Positions 19,695 through 28,033 of a stretch of DNA of 34,912 nucleotides are shown here, in pieces (positions within the stretch are counted from its first letter, which is position 1; each line of letters begins with the position of its first letter). Position numbers and translations under genes: made by a program. The notes beneath the pieces are model-generated. The model was not told the origin of the DNA. It worked only from the letters and a program-made list of their open reading frames with translations, and made no database searches. The DNA comes from Rickettsiales bacterium. Lineage in GTDB: Bacteria; Pseudomonadota; Alphaproteobacteria; Rickettsiales; CAIPFW01. The stretch covers positions 1-34,912 of the forward strand of contig JBIKUW010000001.1 of NCBI GenBank assembly GCA_044347385.1, in the 5' to 3' direction.

Positions 19695-19770
19695 TTGTCA
19701 TCCTATAATTAGAATTGTCATCCCAGTGCTTTTCAACTTTTCATCCTAGTGTGATACACACGCGTAGAAG
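19695..19770 (+). repeat. degenerate fragments of the TTGTCATYCCAG palindromic element (solo 5' ends)
   Basis: TTGTCATCCTAT at 19695, TTGTCATCCCAGTGCTT at 19715, and TCATCCTAGTGTGATACACACGCG at 19741. The last resembles the 5' end of the copy at 23608. Confidence 0.5.
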
Positions 19771-19774
19771 TAAA

Positions 19775-19874
19775 TTGTCATCCCAGTTGAACGAAGTGAA
19801 ACGTGGAATCCTTTGATGTTTGAGAAATGCATCCCTAATTCCTGCTAAGATCCTATGCTTAATAACAAGGACAA
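19775..19874 (+). repeat. RPE/MITE-like palindromic element, short form
   Basis: TTGTCATCCCAGTT...AACGTGGAATCC...CATCCCTAATTCCTGCTAAGATCCTATGC...AAGGACAA, with a degenerate 3' terminus. Confidence 0.75.
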
Positions 19875-19917
19875 CGTCCTTATAAATGTCATTTCAGTCT
19901 TTTCAAAATAATAAATA

Positions 19918-20002
19918 TTGTCATCCCAGGAATTTATTCCGTGGGATCCATTAAGGTCATTCCCCAAACAGCTAAATAACAAGTATCTGCCTGAAATGAC
20001 AT
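19918..20002 (+). repeat. RPE/MITE-like palindromic element, short form (AGGTCATTCCCC subfamily)
   Basis: TTGTCATCCCAGG...CGTGGGATCCATTAAGGTCATTCCCCA...CTGAAATGACAT. It shares its core with the copy at 24053..24150. Confidence 0.7.
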
Positions 20003-20971: not shown

Positions 20972-22174
20972 TTAAAGAGAACCACTTTTCTCACTTCCAC
21001 ATCCTTTACGAAACCCACTAAGAAAATTCATCATAACCGATGGTTTATTTGCTCCCCTCCCATTGGTGATAAGTTCCTTATTATTTGCATCTTTATTCTG
21101 TGCTTTGCCACCATTTTCTACTGATTCGCTTTTAGATTCAGAAGCTTCAGAAGTGACTTTATTATCCCAACTACTTGTTGTACTATCACTTCTTACCTTG
21201 GAAACGCTCTTTTGCGACCAAGTACTGGTATCAAATATAGAAAATTTCTTTTCTCCGTTTTCGTCCTTTTTTGTTTCTACTTCCACTTCAGAACCTTTGC
21301 CCTGTACTTGACCTAATGCATCAGTGCTTTTTAATTCTATACCATTAGGAACTGCAACATCAGAAGCGTTGCTAACTTTAGCTTTAACTTTAGCTTTTGT
21401 ACCTGCTTCTGGACCTTTGTTCGCATTTCTAAAAAAAGAAAAAAGTCCGCTCTTTTCATTATTTGCAGTTAATTTAGCTAATTCTTTCTCTGCTTCTTCT
21501 TTTGCTTTATTTGCTTCAAATAATTCTGCTTTCAATTTTTCTATTATTTCTTGACTACTTTCAACAACTACTGCAACACTTGCATTTGCACTTGCACTCT
21601 CAGCTCCTGTAACTTGAGCACTAGTCATCGAACCAATATTTGAATTATTGTCAATCTTAGAAGTATCAACTACTGCTATAGGAGCAGCAACTACTACTGT
21701 AGGAGTAGAACTCTTAAATCCAGCGCTAGAAGTAAAAATCTCAAATCCAGCTTTACTAATCTCAATAGTTGGAGCATTTGTTTCTTCTTGTTTGTTCTGG
21801 CCCCCCAACACTTTGATTTCTTCTATATTAAGATCTTGATGATCAACATCTTCATCAAATGAAACATGATCTTTAAACTCCTCGTCTGTTTCGACAACTG
21901 ATTTGCTGTGTTCGTCTACTAAATTTTTAGCTTCATCTAAATTATTATCTACACCACCACTCACTTGAGCTTGATTTTCTGCTCTTGCATTCTCATCAAT
22001 AATTTCAGCAGTTGTTTCAATAACATCGCTGTTATTTGCATTTTCAACTGAAACTTCCTTTGAACCTCCCGTAGCAGGACCATCATTTACATTATTAGAT
22101 TGAGCGCTACTCGCATCACCAGAAATCGTTTGCGTCAATTGTTTGTCATTTTGTACTTGTACTTGTGTCTCCAT
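20972..22174 (-). CDS. hypothetical acidic A/S/V/G/E-rich low-complexity protein
   Basis: 400-codon ATG ORF, visibly more G+C-rich than its surroundings. No TM segment or signal peptide. Short coiled-coil segment IIEKLKAELFEANKAKEEAEKELAKL. The antisense ORFs 21063..21839 are mirror frames. Confidence 0.55.
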   Translation of the reverse strand: METQVQVQNDKQLTQTISGDASSAQSNNVNDGPATGGSKEVSVENANNSDVIETTAEIIDENARAENQAQVSGGVDNNLDEAKNLVDEHSKSVVETDEEFKDHVSFDEDVDHQDLNIEEIKVLGGQNKQEETNAPTIEISKAGFEIFTSSAGFKSSTPTVVVAAPIAVVDTSKIDNNSNIGSMTSAQVTGAESASANASVAVVVESSQEIIEKLKAELFEANKAKEEAEKELAKLTANNEKSGLFSFFRNANKGPEAGTKAKVKAKVSNASDVAVPNGIELKSTDALGQVQGKGSEVEVETKKDENGEKKFSIFDTSTWSQKSVSKVRSDSTTSSWDNKVTSEASESKSESVENGGKAQNKDANNKELITNGRGANKPSVMMNFLSGFRKGCGSEKSGSL

Positions 22175-22342: not shown

Positions 22343-23326
22343 ATGATGAAGAAAATATTGTTTGCGATCTTATTTTTGCTAATTGTTTTCGGCGGTGGAG
22401 CTGGATATGTCATTTATCAAAATGTTGTACAATTTCAAAATAACCTTTCGGAACCAGTAATTTTCGTCATAGAAAAAGGAGATTCCATAGATCAAATTAG
22501 TTGGAAAATGGTCAATGCTGGTGTCGCCCATGATCTTTCATCAACAAAATATTTTCTCAAAGCTGTCTCTGTACAAAAACATTTACAATTTGGAGAATAC
22601 ATCGTTGAACCTCACGAAAAGTTCACTAATGTTGTCAATAAAGTTGTAAACGGAAGAGTCTATATCAGGAAAATGAGAATTTCCAGTGGTTTGACCAATC
22701 GTGAAATCTTCAAAATTATAGACAGCAATAAACATCTTTCAGGAACATATGATAAAAAATCTATTATTGAAGGAACTATTTTTGCTGATACTTATACCTA
22801 TCGTGCTGGTGAATCTCGTCAAAAACTTGTTGATCAAATGGTTCAATCTACAACGAAAAAGCTATGGCAAGAGTGGCGCGCACGCGATCGATCCGTCCCA
22901 TACACTTCAATGTTCGACGCATTAATTCTCGCATCTATAATCGAAAAGGAAGCTTTTTATTTTGATGATAAAAAAAGGGTTGCCTCAGTTTTTATAAATA
23001 GATTGCGCGTTGGTCAAAAACTTCAATCTGATCCCACAGTTCAGTATCACGTTGACCTCATTCACGGTAAAAAGATGAAGCTTTTAAAAAGTCATTTTTC
23101 TCTTCCATCTCATCACAGCACCTATTATAAAAATGGTCTTCCATTAACCGCAATTTGCAATCCAAGCATTGCATCAATTCATGCAGCTCTTCATCCTGAG
23201 AAAACGAGCTATTATTATTTTATTTCAATGCCGAACAACCTACGTCTATTTTTTAGTAAAAATGGTCGTGAGCATTTGAATTATGTAAGTAAGATGTATC
23301 AGATGAGAAGAGAATTTGGGGAATAG
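22343..23326 (+). CDS. mltG: endolytic murein transglycosylase MltG (YceG family)
   Basis: N-terminal TM segment. YceG signatures are EG.IF.DTY, LILASIIEKEA (catalytic Glu), VF.NRL..G..LQSDPTV.Y, and YNTY-like STYYKNGLP..AICNP. Confidence 0.88.
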   Translation: MMKKILFAILFLLIVFGGGAGYVIYQNVVQFQNNLSEPVIFVIEKGDSIDQISWKMVNAGVAHDLSSTKYFLKAVSVQKHLQFGEYIVEPHEKFTNVVNKVVNGRVYIRKMRISSGLTNREIFKIIDSNKHLSGTYDKKSIIEGTIFADTYTYRAGESRQKLVDQMVQSTTKKLWQEWRARDRSVPYTSMFDALILASIIEKEAFYFDDKKRVASVFINRLRVGQKLQSDPTVQYHVDLIHGKKMKLLKSHFSLPSHHSTYYKNGLPLTAICNPSIASIHAALHPEKTSYYYFISMPNNLRLFFSKNGREHLNYVSKMYQMRREFGE

Positions 23327-23364
23327 ATTTATCATTTTTTATTGTCATTCCAATGTTTTTTAAC

Positions 23365-23596
23365 TTGTCATCCCATTGCTTCAGCACGTGACCAACGAGA
23401 GAGCAACATAGGTTGCGACATATTGGAGTTACTCGGGGAACAAAGAATTCTTTAGAATTCGTAGTGAGGACGAGAATCCATTGAGTCATTCCAGTTTCAT
23501 TTATTAAACGTTGAATCCTCTGAGAAATTAGTAATCTATTTATCACATTCCTCTTTTCTGATAAGATCCTACGCTTTTACAAAGCTAGGATGACAA
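23365..23596 (+). repeat. RPE/MITE-like palindromic element, long form carrying a nested insertion
   Basis: TTGTCATCCCATTG...CACGTG [84-bp insert 23391..23474] AATCC...CATTCCTCTTTTCTGATAAGATCCTACGC...CTAGGATGACAA. Confidence 0.75.
23391..23474 (+). repeat. nested second-order element (GAGAGAGCAACATAGGTTGCGACA...GAGTTACTCGG...CGAG)
   Basis: It interrupts the ACGTG|AATCC junction, which is contiguous in short-form copies. Contains the GCAAC-ATAG-GTTGC hairpin. Has an expanded loop relative to the 59-bp copies. Confidence 0.6.
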
Positions 23597-23607
23597 CGAC
23601 TTTTAAC

Positions 23608-23929
23608 TTGTCATTCCAGTGTGGCACACACGTGGGATCCATTCAGTCTTTTTCAAATGTATCAGAAATGTTCTGATGGAATCCTATGCATTTCTCTTTG
23701 TGGCTTTGCCATCGATTTTAATGTCATATGATTGATGAGGAATTCCAGTGGACTTACGCAAGGGATTACCAACAACTTTAGTTGTTGAATAGTAATCAGT
23801 CAACTGGAGTGAGCTTTTATATTGCCCGAAGAGTTTGAGAGATTGAATCTCTCAAATATCCGTCCCATTTAAGAAGGGACTCTCTAGTTCCAATAAGCGA
23901 CTCTTTTGCTTTCATGCTTAGGATGACAA
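23608..23929 (+). repeat. composite repeat: short-form 5' part (23608 to about 23719) followed by a variant element with a hairpin-dense core, ending CTTAGGATGACAA
   Basis: Begins TTGTCATTCCAGTGTGGCACACACGTGGGATCC. The junction string AGGATGACAACGACTTTTAACTTGTCATT occurs identically at both of its boundaries (23587.. and 23920..). The internal boundaries are uncertain. Confidence 0.55.
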
Positions 23930-23940
23930 CGACTTTTAAC

Positions 23941-24044
23941 TTGTCATTATAGTTGAGTGTAACGAAGGTGTGTAATCTCTTCAGGCCATCCCTAATTCCT
24001 CATAAGATCCTACGCCACTAGCAAGTACGTGGCTAGGATGACAA
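23941..24044 (+). repeat. RPE/MITE-like palindromic element, short form
   Basis: TTGTCATTATAGTTG...CATCCCTAATTCCTCATAAGATCCTACGCCACTAGCAAGTACGTGGCTAGGATGACAA. The 3' 50 nt are identical to the copy ending at 24333. Confidence 0.75.
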
Positions 24045-24052
24045 AACATTAA

Positions 24053-24150
24053 TGTCATTCCAGTGCTTTAGCACGTGGAATCTTTACAGGTCATTTCCCC
24101 ATCCTGACAAGATCCTACGTTTAATAACAGGTATTAAACTAGGATGACAT
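24053..24150 (+). repeat. RPE/MITE-like palindromic element, short form
   Basis: TGTCATTCCAGTGCTTTAGCACGTGGAATCT...AGGTCATTTCCCCATCCTGACAAGATCCTACGT...CTAGGATGACAT. Confidence 0.75.
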
Positions 24151-24158
24151 TTTGCCTT

Positions 24159-24333
24159 CGTCATTCCAGTTGTGAGCTTGATCACAACGTGGAAAAGAGA
24201 GAGCAACATAGGTTGCGACACACGAGTTACTCGGCGAAGAATGAGGCCGAGAATCCTGTTAGCTCTTTACAGATGCATCACTAATTCCTCATAAGATCCT
24301 ACGCCACTAGCAAGTACGTGGCTAGGATGACAA
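24159..24333 (+). repeat. RPE/MITE-like palindromic element, long form with 59-bp nested insertion; near-identical inverted twin at 27741..27915
   Basis: CGTCATTCCAGTTGTGAGCTTGATCACAACGTGG [insert 24193..24251] AATCCTG...CATCACTAATTCCTCATAAGATCCTACGCC...CTAGGATGACAA. Confidence 0.85.
24193..24251 (+). repeat. nested second-order element, 59-bp form
   Basis: AAAAGAGAGAGCAACATAGGTTGCGACACACGAGTTACTCGGCGAAGAATGAGGCCGAG, with two internal perfect hairpins (GCAAC/GTTGC and CTCGGC/GCCGAG). It splits ACGTGG|AATCC. Confidence 0.65.
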
Positions 24334-24465
24334 TACTTTTTCACTCTTACAACCCACTGCCTGTCGATTATGTAATAATTATTATTATATAAAAATAATA
24401 CATCACCTCAAAATAAATAATCTAAACTCCTAAAACACTTCTTCAATTTTTTCCAATAAATTACT

Positions 24466-25050
24466 TTAAGATGATAACATTTCAACCGTTAAATTATTAT
24501 TCGTATAAATACATAAATCCCCAGCTATTTTCATAGATTTTCTAACAATTTGCTCAGCATCAAAATCAGTATTTTCAAACAAAGCTAGAGCTGCAGAAAA
24601 CGCATAATTTCCACCAGAACCTATAGCAGAAATTCCATGCTCTGGCTCCATAACATCACCATTTCCACTCAAAGTTAAGATTTCTTCAGTATTTGCAACA
24701 ATAAGCATCGCCTCTAAACGACGCAAAACTTTATCATTTCTCCAATCTTTCGCCAACTCAATACAAGCTCGAGTCAACTGCATAGGATGTTTTTCCAATT
24801 TCGCTTCTAATCGTTCTGCCAAAGCAAATCCATCAGCAGCCGAACCAGCAAAACCAATTAAAACGTTATGCTTTTCCAATTTTCTCACCTTCTTCGCCGT
24901 ACCCTTCACAACAGTATGGCCAAGAGTAACCTGACCATCACTACACATTACAACTTTATTCCCCCTCTTCACGCATAAAATCGTTGTGGAATAAATCTCA
25001 TTTGGATTTTTTTGCATACGCAAATCTTCAATTGAAAAACTCATAATCAA
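24466..25050 (-). CDS. hslV: ATP-dependent protease HslVU, peptidase subunit HslV
   Basis: [23 protein letters not shown] (catalytic Thr region), [24 protein letters not shown], and GSGGNYA. The catalytic Thr lies 21 codons after the track start. Alternative starts are Met3 (25044) and Met12 (25017). Confidence 0.92.
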
Positions 25051-25102: not shown

Positions 25103-25528
25103 TTATTTTTTGACGGTCTCACTCTTTCCATTACTACCATATTCAAAAGTTTGATCTAGAGGTTTTTCACTTGTATCTGAATCAGAACTCATTGCATTAA
25201 ATCTTTTCTCTAAATCTTCTTGACTTAATTCTTGGTCTTTATTCCAGTCAAATTTTCCTTCTGCTCTTTTTGCAACCTTTTTATTACTATTTTCTTCAGA
25301 TCTATAATTCATACCCTGACTTGTTGTAATTTCATCTTCCCACGCAGGACCTTGCAAATCATCTATCTGACCCTCTTTCCGCTCTATATTATTTTTTCGA
25401 CGACTTAGAAATACAGCAGTAAATATCACACCGACGATAATAAGTGCAATAGAACCACTAATAATTAATCCTGATGCAACAGGATTATCTTTAATCAAAA
25501 GACCAAATTGTTCAATATCTTTTTTCAT
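25103..25528 (-). CDS. hypothetical single-pass membrane protein with acidic, Ser-rich tail
   Basis: 141-codon ATG ORF. TM segment SGLIISGSIALIIVGVIFTAVFL is followed by RRKNN (positive-inside). Confidence 0.5.
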   Translation of the reverse strand: MKKDIEQFGLLIKDNPVASGLIISGSIALIIVGVIFTAVFLSRRKNNIERKEGQIDDLQGPAWEDEITTSQGMNYRSEENSNKKVAKRAEGKFDWNKDQELSQEDLEKRFNAMSSDSDTSEKPLDQTFEYGSNGKSETVKK

Positions 25529-25673: not shown

Positions 25674-26288
25674 ATGCGAGTTTTTATCACTGGAACAGGA
25701 ACAAACATAGGAAAAACGATCATTTCTGGATGGTTGCTTTCTCACCTAAAACATTATTACTATTGGAAGCCTATACAATCAGGCACTTCTGAAAATAGCG
25801 ATATTGATTTTATTCGCTCAATCACGAATCGCATCTTTCAACCAATCTACTCTTTCCCAGAACCTCTTTCCCCACATCTCGCTGCAAAAATCAATCACAC
25901 ACAGATAGATTTGAGCAAAATTCAAAATCAAACTACAAATGAGGAAAATCTAATTATTGAAGGAGCTGGAGGAGTTCTTGTCCCGCTAAATGATGAATTC
26001 ATGATGATTGATTTGATCAAACTATTGAACATTCCTACAATTATCATCACTCAGTCTTCTCTTGGAACGATTAATCACACCTGCCTCACGATAGAAGCTC
26101 TAAAAAATAGAGGCATAAAAATTCTTGGTGTGATTATGAATGGGGAGAAAAATGAAGAAAATAGAAAGGCTATTGAAAAGTTTGGTAATGTCAAAGTTCT
26201 TGATGAAACAAAAACTTTCGATCTCAGCAATATAAATGATAGTTTTTTGAAAAAAGAAATTAGTCAGGGTTTGAAGGAGATTTTTTAG
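25674..26288 (+). CDS. bioD: dethiobiotin synthase
   Basis: N-terminal MRVFITGTGTNIGKT P-loop, YWKP.Q.G, EGAGG..VP and GVI.NG. The track ORF begins at a GTG at 25635. The ATG at 25674, immediately before the P-loop, is the more likely start. Confidence 0.8.
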   Translation: MRVFITGTGTNIGKTIISGWLLSHLKHYYYWKPIQSGTSENSDIDFIRSITNRIFQPIYSFPEPLSPHLAAKINHTQIDLSKIQNQTTNEENLIIEGAGGVLVPLNDEFMMIDLIKLLNIPTIIITQSSLGTINHTCLTIEALKNRGIKILGVIMNGEKNEENRKAIEKFGNVKVLDETKTFDLSNINDSFLKKEISQGLKEIF

Positions 26289-26327: not shown

Positions 26328-26430
26328 TTGTCATTCCAGTGCTTCAACACGTGGGATCCTTTGATGTTCAAGAAATACATTCCTAATCCCTGACAAGATC
26401 TGACGCCTACTCCCTAGTCTGAGATGACAA
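26328..26430 (+). repeat. RPE/MITE-like palindromic element, short form (CCTACTCC..TGAGATGACAA subfamily)
   Basis: TTGTCATTCCAGTGCTTCAACACGTGGGATCCTTTGATG...CATTCCTAATCCCTGACAAGATCTGACGCCTACTCCCTAGTCTGAGATGACAA. Confidence 0.8.
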
Positions 26431-26557
26431 TATTTTTTAGAATGACATTAATAAAAAAATAAAAAAATCACTTTATTGCATAAATTTCACAAAAACCCCA
26501 AAATTCTGCTTCCAACAAAAATTCCAATCTATTAAACTTTCAATAACTTAATAATTT

Positions 26558-27721
26558 TTGAAAAAAATGTCTTTTAATTTAACTCCATCACTAAAAAATC
26601 ACGAGGATGCTCGCGCGAAAGCTCTTGTATCTGCTGTGAAGTTGTTGGAGAGACATCTTTTTCAATTCACACCAACAGAAATTATTGCCACCAAAATCAA
26701 AAAACAGACTTTCTGGTTAATGAATTCTCTTGTAACTTACAACACTCGTCGTGCAAAACTTTTCAAGAAAATCCTTCAAACCGATCTAACGGAAGATGAA
26801 TGGATCGAGTTCACCACTCACATCACAGCTGTTGAAAATAAAATCGTCGATGCTATTAATAAGGGGCACGTTGATAATGAGTGTATCAATTTTCTTAAAA
26901 ATAATTTTTGGTTCATTGACGGTTTCATAAGACATAAATTGAAATATTGTAAAATGTTTATGATTCAAAATGACATCGAATGCTCTGATATCTCAGAATC
27001 TGATATTGAAATTGATTCAAAAGACTTAGGAAATCCATTATTTCAAGGTTGCACAGAAGAAAAATTCAACAAAGATTCTATACAAAAAGTTTTTGGCTCA
27101 AAGGTTGTAAATTCACTTGATCAGGAGGTTTTCGATGAAATTTCTCTAGATTGCCAAAGCCTAGATGATCTTAAAACTATTGTTGTTCCTCACGTTCCTG
27201 GATATATTGCGAAGGATATCGATTTTAACGCAAAAATAAATGAAGCTACTGGTCTTGATAACGTATCTATCGAGGTTAAAAGTTCAAATCCTTTCACAAC
27301 GAATGAAAAAAACGACATCACTTCGAGCAATCACAACCCTTTAATTGATCACAACACGTTTTTACGTGGAAATAAAATGTTTTCTAACAAAGATGAAGAA
27401 ACAAAAATTAAAAATCAACAGATTGAAAAAAAATTGGAGAAAAGTTTGATTGAACAAATACAAAAAGAAAAAAATAATCGTGGGAATATATTAAATAAGA
27501 TTTACGACAACGATGAAAATAAAATATATAATAATTTGCTTGATTGCCAGAAAAATCCAGAAAAATCTGGAATACAAAATCAGTCGCAATCTCCTCCTCC
27601 GTATCACGAAGCCATTCTAACTCATGCAGAAATTAGAAGAAGAGGCGATATTCCGTTCATACCTGGTGAACCAAATCCATATGACTTTATTAATTATGGC
27701 GATCCTGGTGTTAAGAAATAG
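26558..27721 (+). CDS. hypothetical protein with helical N-terminal domain and disordered C-terminal half bearing PPPY, NPF and RGD short motifs (candidate effector)
   Basis: 387-codon ORF. The first codon is TTG, and the first ATG is at 26567 (MSFNL...). No TM segment or signal peptide. Bracketed by repeat copies. Confidence 0.55.
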   Translation: MKKMSFNLTPSLKNHEDARAKALVSAVKLLERHLFQFTPTEIIATKIKKQTFWLMNSLVTYNTRRAKLFKKILQTDLTEDEWIEFTTHITAVENKIVDAINKGHVDNECINFLKNNFWFIDGFIRHKLKYCKMFMIQNDIECSDISESDIEIDSKDLGNPLFQGCTEEKFNKDSIQKVFGSKVVNSLDQEVFDEISLDCQSLDDLKTIVVPHVPGYIAKDIDFNAKINEATGLDNVSIEVKSSNPFTTNEKNDITSSNHNPLIDHNTFLRGNKMFSNKDEETKIKNQQIEKKLEKSLIEQIQKEKNNRGNILNKIYDNDENKIYNNLLDCQKNPEKSGIQNQSQSPPPYHEAILTHAEIRRRGDIPFIPGEPNPYDFINYGDPGVKK

Positions 27722-27740
27722 TATTGTCATCTTAAAAGTT

Positions 27741-27915
27741 TTGTCATCCTAGTTTCGTACTTGTTAGGAGCGTAGGATCTTATGAGGAATTAGTGATGCA
27801 TTTGTAAAGAGCTAACAGGATTCTCGGCCTCATTCTTCGCCGAGTAACTCGTGTGTCGCAACCTATGTTGCTCTCTCTTTTCCACGTTGTGATCAAGCTC
27901 ACAACTGGAATGACG
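27741..27915 (-). repeat. RPE/MITE-like palindromic element, long form with nested insertion; inverted twin of 24159..24333
   Basis: The reverse complement matches 24159..24333 over the full 175 nt. By eye there are about 7 mismatches, 6 of them in the last 30 nt. Confidence 0.85.
27823..27881 (-). repeat. nested second-order element, 59-bp form (reverse orientation)
   Basis: The reverse complement is identical by eye to 24193..24251. Confidence 0.65.
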
Positions 27916-27924
27916 GAGGCAAAA

Positions 27925-28033
27925 TGTCATCTCAAACTACGGAGTAGGCCTGAGATCCCATCAGAATGTAGGAATGCATCGGAAAAGGATTAAAGGGATC
28001 CCACGTCTTCGTTTTACTCGACTGGGATGACAA
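27925..28033 (-). repeat. RPE/MITE-like palindromic element, short form, reverse orientation (same subfamily as 26328..26430)
   Basis: The plus strand reads TGTCATCTCAAACTACGGAGTAGGCCTGAGATCCCATCAG...GGGATCCCACGTCTTCG...GACTGGGATGACAA, the reverse complement of the family architecture. Confidence 0.75.

Follow-up and report, generated by a model that had tools for sequence, protein, structure and literature searches.

A head-to-tail array of hairpin-ended repeats in the gap downstream of hslV in a Rickettsiales genome

REPINs and BIMEs are REP doublets that are mobilised by RAYT transposases (Bertels & Rainey 2011, PMC3116915; PMC3337134). The largest REPIN cluster in SBW25 contains four REPINs in just over 700 bp (PMC3116915; PMC3337134). 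Rickettsia palindromic elements (RPEs) form another group of small palindromic repeats; about half of them are intragenic and in-frame insertion is their hallmark (PMC10969869). The present study describes palindromic repeats beside hslV in a Rickettsiales bacterium. The window, which is the whole stretch of 34,912 nucleotides that was analysed, is contig C101 of a 1.18-Mb draft genome (G000; 122 contigs, 81% complete, 30.6% GC), and contigs identical to it recur across several freshwater metagenomes. An earlier note on this DNA had pointed out that a 1.1-kb non-coding array of repeats sits where hslU should follow hslV. It was found that the gap between hslV and mltG is nearly all dispersed-repeat DNA and that hslU exists intact on another contig. 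The tract is probably a passive accumulation site for lineage-specific, non-autonomous, hairpin-ended selfish repeats, lying in a gap that was left by an older split of hslVU.

The array (23343-24333) consists of five complete co-oriented hairpin-ended elements (E1 to E5) and one duplicated terminus, and two more types of module (B and C) are nested inside. The elements begin with TGTCAT(T/C)C, finish with G(G/A)ATGACA(A) and are separated by gaps of 8-13 nt. At least six abutting elements had been proposed; five of them hold, with coordinates right to within 1-2 nt, and the sixth piece (23343-23365) is the duplicated terminus. The parts of the array are given below.

23343..23365, plus strand: duplicated outer head terminus of E1 (TGTCATTCCAATG + TTTTTTAACT), not a sixth element; there are about 40 such doublets genome-wide.
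23366..23596, plus strand: E1, head to tail, delimited by its termini, with module B in the head hairpin; 16-35 other genomic copies per bin.
23394..23479, plus strand: module B, copy 1 (AACGAGAGAGCAAC..GAGTTACTCGG..CGAGAATCC), belonging to repeat families D7/D8/D10; 28 blastn hits genome-wide.
23587..23615, plus strand: first copy of an exact 29-nt junction string, made of the E1 tail, a head extension and the E2 head.
23609..23929, plus strand: E2, head to tail; module C and B-like flanks lie within it; 78% match over 393 nt to C99:10719-11084.
23724..23869, plus strand: core of module C, a third type of repeat with many hairpins; 29 copies (86-93% identity), 28 of them elsewhere in the genome, as a rule within module B.
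23920..23948, plus strand: second copy of the exact 29-nt junction string.
23942..24044, plus strand: E3, with a degenerate head hairpin and an intact tail; DNA fold z -0.7, the tail hairpin alone folding.
24053..24150, plus strand: E4, 98 nt long and canonical in form; a TGTCAT/ATGACA stem closes the unit, which has one central and two terminal hairpins.
24159..24333, plus strand: E5, which includes module B (24194-24256) and forms the left arm of an inverted pair of 95% identity (24143-24340 vs 27931-27734, 95.5% over 198 nt).
24334..24465, no strand: AT-rich DNA that separates the array from the hslV stop and is not made up of elements; at most 11 other copies over 24347-24406 and 0 from 24407.

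Every 20-nt bin over 23327-24350 has between 5 and 95 other copies in the genome, and only 24407-24465, beside the hslV stop, is without any. The gap is the largest intergenic tract of the window, as the note had it, and the array is moreover the largest of the 171 repeat blocks of the genome, with 973 nt vs 572 nt for the runner-up. Its region also has the most element termini (10) among 1005 intergenic regions. Direct doublets of termini such as the one preceding E1, at a spacing of 17-45 nt (mostly 21-24 nt), number 15+25 in the genome. The claim that the gap holds no credible open reading frame was borne out, the longest stop-free run under table 11 being 83 codons. A hidden gene under another code was not found either: under tables 4 and 25, or with one stop codon at a time read through, stop-free runs do not exceed 135 codons. 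That length is reached with TGA read through, and it crosses repeat DNA as the 83-codon run does. A GTG-initiated frame of 97 codons at 23253-23546 (minus strand) overlaps the end of mltG and E1; like the frames of 55-78 aa that some public gene calls place here, it is in all likelihood spurious and due to repeat DNA. The family also forms three smaller clusters in other intergenic spacers of the window (19695-20002, 26328-26447 and 27741-28033).

The family is abundant in this genome. Termini of elements number 432-443 genome-wide, vs about 60 expected from base composition, and the 171 blocks amount to 2.7% of the genome. The strict hairpin pattern GTCATYCYRG-N6-30-GTRGRATC has 167 matches and its reversed control has 0. 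The same pattern has 0 matches in the congener (G001) and in the relatives G002, G003 and G022, and when the array was compared by blastn with 31 genomes, G000 alone matched. A search of 185,579 species genomes with the exact tail-type hairpin pattern returned only 10 singletons, which come from unrelated and mostly far GC-richer genomes and have inner segments that are not hairpin-like. In the literature, the terminal motifs turned up only in primer sequences that have nothing to do with the family. These 10 are best taken as chance matches, and to judge from the sequences the repeat family appears to be confined to one species.

The elements are distributed non-randomly. About 98% of the repeat DNA (31.4 of 32.2 kb) is intergenic, and occupied intergenic regions number 129 vs 167 +/- 5 in simulations. 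Abutting elements are co-oriented in 47 of 53 pairs (p = 6e-9), and the spacers between them favour lengths of about 8-15 or 27-39 nt. Of 83 simple elements, 70 pair a head-type end with a tail-type end. Neighbouring elements have a similarity of 72% vs 67% for random pairs. Since neighbours are barely more alike than random pairs, the arrays are not recent tandem duplications. One junction inside the array had been attributed to tandem duplication or to repeated insertion into the same site, on the basis of a string that occurs identically twice. The 29-mer AGGATGACAACGACTTTTAACTTGTCATT is indeed present in exactly two copies in the window, at 23587 and 23920, where chance predicts none, and there is no further copy anywhere in the assembly. 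As the 29-mer is confined to the array, local duplication or gene conversion is plausible for this pair. The right-hand 13 nt of the string (TTTAACTT-GTCAT) are a recurrent terminus extension with 30 copies genome-wide.

If the tract is a passive accumulation site, new copies would land preferentially beside or within existing copies and in the same orientation, and this would generate head-to-tail arrays. Copies would then persist where insertion is cost-free. The convergent spacer between mltG and hslV could qualify, since in this lineage no cistron follows hslV. Copies of high identity would in turn become substrates for homologous recombination; one pair may invert the 3.4-kb hslV-orf384 segment, and direct repeats within the array may delete elements.

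The genes on the two sides of the gap are the following.

22343..23326, plus strand: mltG (endolytic transglycosylase), left, convergent neighbour of the array; PF02618, E 1.8e-63; TIGR00247.
24466..25044, minus strand: hslV, 192 aa; NF003964, 276 bits (cut-off 137 bits); exact product in 13 public contigs.

For hslV, ATG at 25044 is more likely to be the start than TTG at 25050, and public gene calls give the 192-aa product. HslV has an N-terminal extension before the catalytic Thr, which we take to be an alphaproteobacterial trait. The note had correctly made mltG the convergent next gene. It had explained the missing hslU in two ways: the gene was lost or relocated and the gap was colonised by repeats, or repeat activity broke the operon. 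A search of the genome, as had been suggested, located a single, intact hslU of 482 aa at C49:1003-2451, divergent from zapE (TIGR00390, 431 bits, full length), with the C-terminal ...FIL tail retained. Loss of the gene can thus be dismissed, while relocation and colonisation by dispersed repeats agree with what was found. hslV on C101 and hslU on C49 lie on different contigs, each with its own neighbours. Both genes are intact and presumably work in trans. No decayed HslU lies under the repeats: when 23201-24600 was searched by tblastn, the best hit had E 0.098 and 20% identity and lay over repeat DNA. The region upstream of hslU, which is the true former junction, contains neither repeats nor a remnant of HslV.

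The state of the congener bears directly on the history of the split. In G001 hslU is likewise paired with zapE. Its hslV has ribD on one side and, 14 nt past the hslV stop, a convergent methyltransferase gene on the other, which is followed by fumC. The mltG of G001 is followed by restriction-modification genes, so that the gene order round hslV and mltG is wholly different in the two genomes. Since hslU-zapE and a hslV without hslU are common to G000 and to the repeat-free G001, the split would be older than the divergence of the species and older than the array. A repeat-free relative with unlinked hslV and hslU is what the note had named as the mark of an ancestral split, and G001 is such a relative. 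The comparison of sequences indicates that the split predates the repeat family and that the operon was not broken by the repeats. Outside the genus 22 relatives have both genes, adjacent in 15 and unlinked in 7; with the congener included, the genes are unlinked in 8 of 23. The two genes are thus often unlinked in this order of small genomes. One shared ancestral split across the order was ruled out, as the neighbours of hslU differ in all 7 of the other families with unlinked genes. The outcome is a deflationary one, because the absence of hslU beside hslV reflects neither gene loss nor repeat damage.

Variants of the locus in public assemblies were compared with the window. Six independent public assemblies cover all or part of the array, and there they match the window at 99.85-100%. 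Two contigs differ in structure, and the first of them involves the partner of E5.

27734..27931, minus strand: right arm of the inverted pair of elements on either side of hslV-orf141-bioD-orf384; match to 24143-24340; the crossover of L042 lies inside the pair.

In contig L042 (JGI 3300008117; L042:5948-6208) the array is joined to the 3.4-kb hslV-orf141-bioD-orf384 segment in reverse orientation, and the change from left-arm to right-arm type lies within the core of about 125 nt over which the two arms of the pair 24143-24340 / 27734-27931 are identical. Contig L049 (GCA_031546665.1; L049:6700-6990) is without 24045-24275; these 231 nt comprise E4 and the greater part of E5, and the crossover falls in a direct repeat of 64 nt (23987-24050 / 24276-24339). 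L049 also diverges at position 23771 of the window into AT-rich DNA that is foreign to this genome, and may be a chimera. Either variant may be the result of homologous recombination between copies or of short-read assembly error. Contig ends of this genome and of the public assemblies often fall inside such repeats. L042 also has a 212-nt out-of-frame deletion in bioD (window 25984-26195; L042:7700-7710), and BioD is called at 204 or 212 aa in other public contigs, vs 217 aa here; the gene may be in decay in a fraction of the population.

It could be argued from these variants that the repeats themselves split hslVU, recombination having moved hslU or hslV, with the array marking the breakpoint. 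The copies appear recombinogenic, as the L042 inversion inside the inverted pair and the L049 loss between 64-nt direct repeats would illustrate, the order of genes round hslV and mltG has changed entirely between G000 and G001, and the 3' flanks of both hslV and hslU are rich in repeats. However, G001 shares hslU-zapE and the hslU-less hslV and yet has zero copies of the family, by which this explanation is largely refuted. The former junction upstream of hslU is also without repeats. Moreover, hslU is not beside hslV in either orientation of the segment, and undoing the inversion places serS, not hslU, after hslV. The same separation has taken place in 7 other families that lack these repeats. 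We therefore regard a split caused by the repeats as very improbable.

The canonical unit is about 85-115 nt long and has a closing stem (TGTCAT/ATGACA), two mutually inverted terminal hairpins and a central linker. Each terminal hairpin has a bulged G and follows the design GTCATCC-YAG-[variable apical stem-loop]-C-G-TRG-GATC; the terminal inverted repeats read TTGTCATYC...GRATGACAA, with the A after GAC conserved at 94%. The Y/R positions of the terminal hairpins covary in 159 of 167 cases, T going with A and C with G, and this may be a mere reflection of two hairpin types. Apical stems have a mean of 4.4 consecutive pairs, vs 0.66 in shuffled sequences, and their arms come in no fewer than 15 different sequences. 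The loop GTACYTGTTA is conserved over four different complementary stems, namely CCAC/GTGG, TTCC/GGAA, CTCT/AGAG and TTGC/GCAA. The single-stranded DNA fold of E4 has an energy of -18.2 kcal/mol (z -5.96), and 0 of 200 shuffles folded as well. It is the shape of the hairpin, rather than its sequence, that is conserved.

REP and BIME elements in enterobacteria serve the host as insulators or terminators, as stabilisers of mRNA 3' ends or as platforms for nucleoid proteins, and the array could in principle be a host-selected structure of this type between two convergent genes. The covarying stems and the conserved loop would fit such a function, as would the near identity of the array in the six public assemblies. 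Elements are also enriched in convergent spacers, of which 16% are occupied vs about 9.5% of tandem or divergent ones, and the array contains two weak terminator-like sites, one per strand and inside nested modules, vs 0.6 +/- 0.8 in shuffles. On the other hand the stems of these sites are only 5 bp long, and E3 has decayed. The congener G001 does without the family. Elements are present in divergent (promoter) spacers and in one coding gene as well. Their orientation relative to transcription is unbiased, 17 against 24, and a role as terminator was rejected on this ground; the 24334-24465 spacer has no terminator-like site. Selection by the host is thus an explanation to which we give little credit, and passive accumulation of the repeats accounts better for the data.

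The nested modules invite a different explanation. In E1 and E5, module B (about 63-86 nt) lies within the head hairpin, on its descending arm. Module C (about 135-146 nt) is dense in hairpins and usually sits at one fixed point within module B, between ..CCGAGTAAC and GATCGCAACC... It may be asked whether B and C are genes for structured non-coding RNA, perhaps a guide or an RNA of ribozyme type that belongs to an undescribed mobile element, in which case the array would be an RNA-gene cluster. The 29 copies of module C have an identity of about 90%, well above the 70% or so of the host elements, and the fixed site within module B would fit such a role. Module C is also densely paired, its alifold energy being -38.7 on the plus strand vs -27.7 on the minus strand. 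Covariation is modest, though, with two-sided changes in 7 of 48 pairs, it is found mostly in one variable terminal hairpin, and some predicted pairs break uncompensated in the alignment. The higher identity of module C may just mean a younger burst. Rfam gave nothing for the gap at the gathering threshold or at E <=5, and nothing at E <=1 for three other loci with modules B and C. No associated protein gene was found. An RNA-gene cluster is accordingly improbable in our judgement.

There is no excess of identical flanks at k = 2-8 and offsets 0-4 around 82 complete elements, and hence no sign of a target-site duplication. The one colonised gene codes for the large subunit of a terminase (C4:1825-4569). 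Here Terminase_6N (aa 102-252) and Terminase_6C (aa 760-892), the ATPase and nuclease domains, flank an insert of about 330 aa that is stop-free and in frame and contains at least 4 elements; it is the single case seen. The extra metagenome contigs of this organism that carry the hairpin have no transposase and only housekeeping genes (glmS, ribF and that of an ankyrin protein). A search of the assembly with Y2_Tnp (PF04986) was uninformative because its controls gave no match.

Several points weigh against passive accumulation of mobile repeats as set out above. Y1_Tnp/RAYT (PF01797) was not found at E <=0.01 in six frames of the 81%-complete assembly, although the control matched in 6 genomes. 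The TnpB zinc ribbon (PF07282), DDE_3 (PF13358), DDE_Tnp_1 (PF01609), IS110 (PF01548) and rve (PF00665) were not found in it either. There is no empty site, that is no insertion polymorphism, among the public contigs. We infer the mobility of the elements, with a transposition mechanism and an enzyme for it, and the neutrality of the array, from a genome that is 81% complete and broken at repeats. The covarying stems and conserved loops could reflect a function for the host. The history of the split is read from one available congener, which is divergent (HslV 75%, HslU 68%), and strictly speaking that genome may have lost the repeats secondarily. The 3' flank of hslU (C49:252-1002), with 7 termini, is among the ten most terminus-rich intergenic regions; this could be chance, a shared permissive context or an unexplained link.

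A bolder proposal is that the family represents an undescribed class of hairpin-ended mobile DNA. Such a class would make no target-site duplication and would use an enzyme, neither RAYT nor a common transposase, that reads the conserved loop on covarying stems. It would insert in fixed orientation beside its own ends, tolerate translation when inside genes and include the RNA-like module C, and it would be an active cause of inversion of the 3.4-kb hslV-bioD segment in natural populations. We hold this to be unlikely in its full form, and retain the accumulation of non-autonomous selfish repeats in an older gap as the probable explanation.

Three orphan proteins are encoded near the array, at 20972-22174 (minus strand), 25103-25528 (minus strand) and 26567-27721 (plus strand), none of which has a match in Pfam or NCBIfam. 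The 400-aa and 141-aa orphans are of low complexity or disordered, and the latter has a membrane anchor and no counterpart in the congener. These neighbouring orphans were considered as a mobilising enzyme and dropped, the 400-aa and 141-aa proteins being low-complexity or disordered.

The value of the locus lies in the family that it displays. It is an abundant family of one species that combines a REPIN-like architecture with RPE-like in-frame colonisation and a strong rule of orientation (47/53), and for which no known transposase was found. It could be a natural system for the spread of elements in reduced genomes and for small inversions and deletions. It is also a warning for the assembly of metagenome-assembled genomes, as contigs of this genome break or switch at the repeats.

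Among known systems, REPINs and BIMEs are like the present family in having a unit of about 100 nt in which two inverted short palindromes fold as one long hairpin. The GT(A/G)G motif at the foot of each hairpin may be a further common trait; it is present in 167 of 167 hairpins here, but is part of the search pattern. They are also nearly all extragenic, lack target-site duplications and form ordered clusters by insertion in or next to copies, the present cluster having five elements in about 1 kb. The differences are that the assembly, which is 81% complete, yielded no RAYT (PF01797), that GTAG/GTGG is here partly base-paired with a bulged G whereas it is unpaired in REPINs, and that there are here many interchangeable cassettes of apical stem, nested extra modules and one gene colonised in frame. 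As the defining RAYT gene was not found, the family is not filed as REPIN. With RPEs it shares small size, palindromic form, a GC content above that of the AT-rich reduced genome around it, the lack of a known transposase, and stop-free in-frame residence in a protein gene, here the terminase with its insert of about 330 aa and at least 4 elements. Unlike RPEs, it has one in-frame case only and forms head-to-tail arrays. The exact tail-type hairpin occurs only as chance singletons among the 185,579 species genomes, and the family is likened to RPE-1 to RPE-10 by behaviour, not by sequence.

MITEs and the clustered pneumococcal repeats (Correia/NEMIS, ERIC, BOX/RUP/SPRITE; PMC10969869) resemble it in their terminal inverted repeats, intergenic location, bunching, mutual insertion and potential for inversions and deletions. 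MITEs of the DDE type differ, as here there is no target-site duplication (82 elements) and no parent insertion sequence with matching ends was found; membership of the classical MITEs fails for these two reasons. Elements derived from IS200/IS605 have end hairpins that are direct on one strand, whereas those here are inverted, and no Y1_Tnp or TnpB was found. As compared with the canonical hslVU operon, both subunits are present, single-copy and intact, but hslU is not directly downstream of hslV, here or in G001. The family is thus a lineage-specific addition to the broad class of small palindromic selfish repeats.

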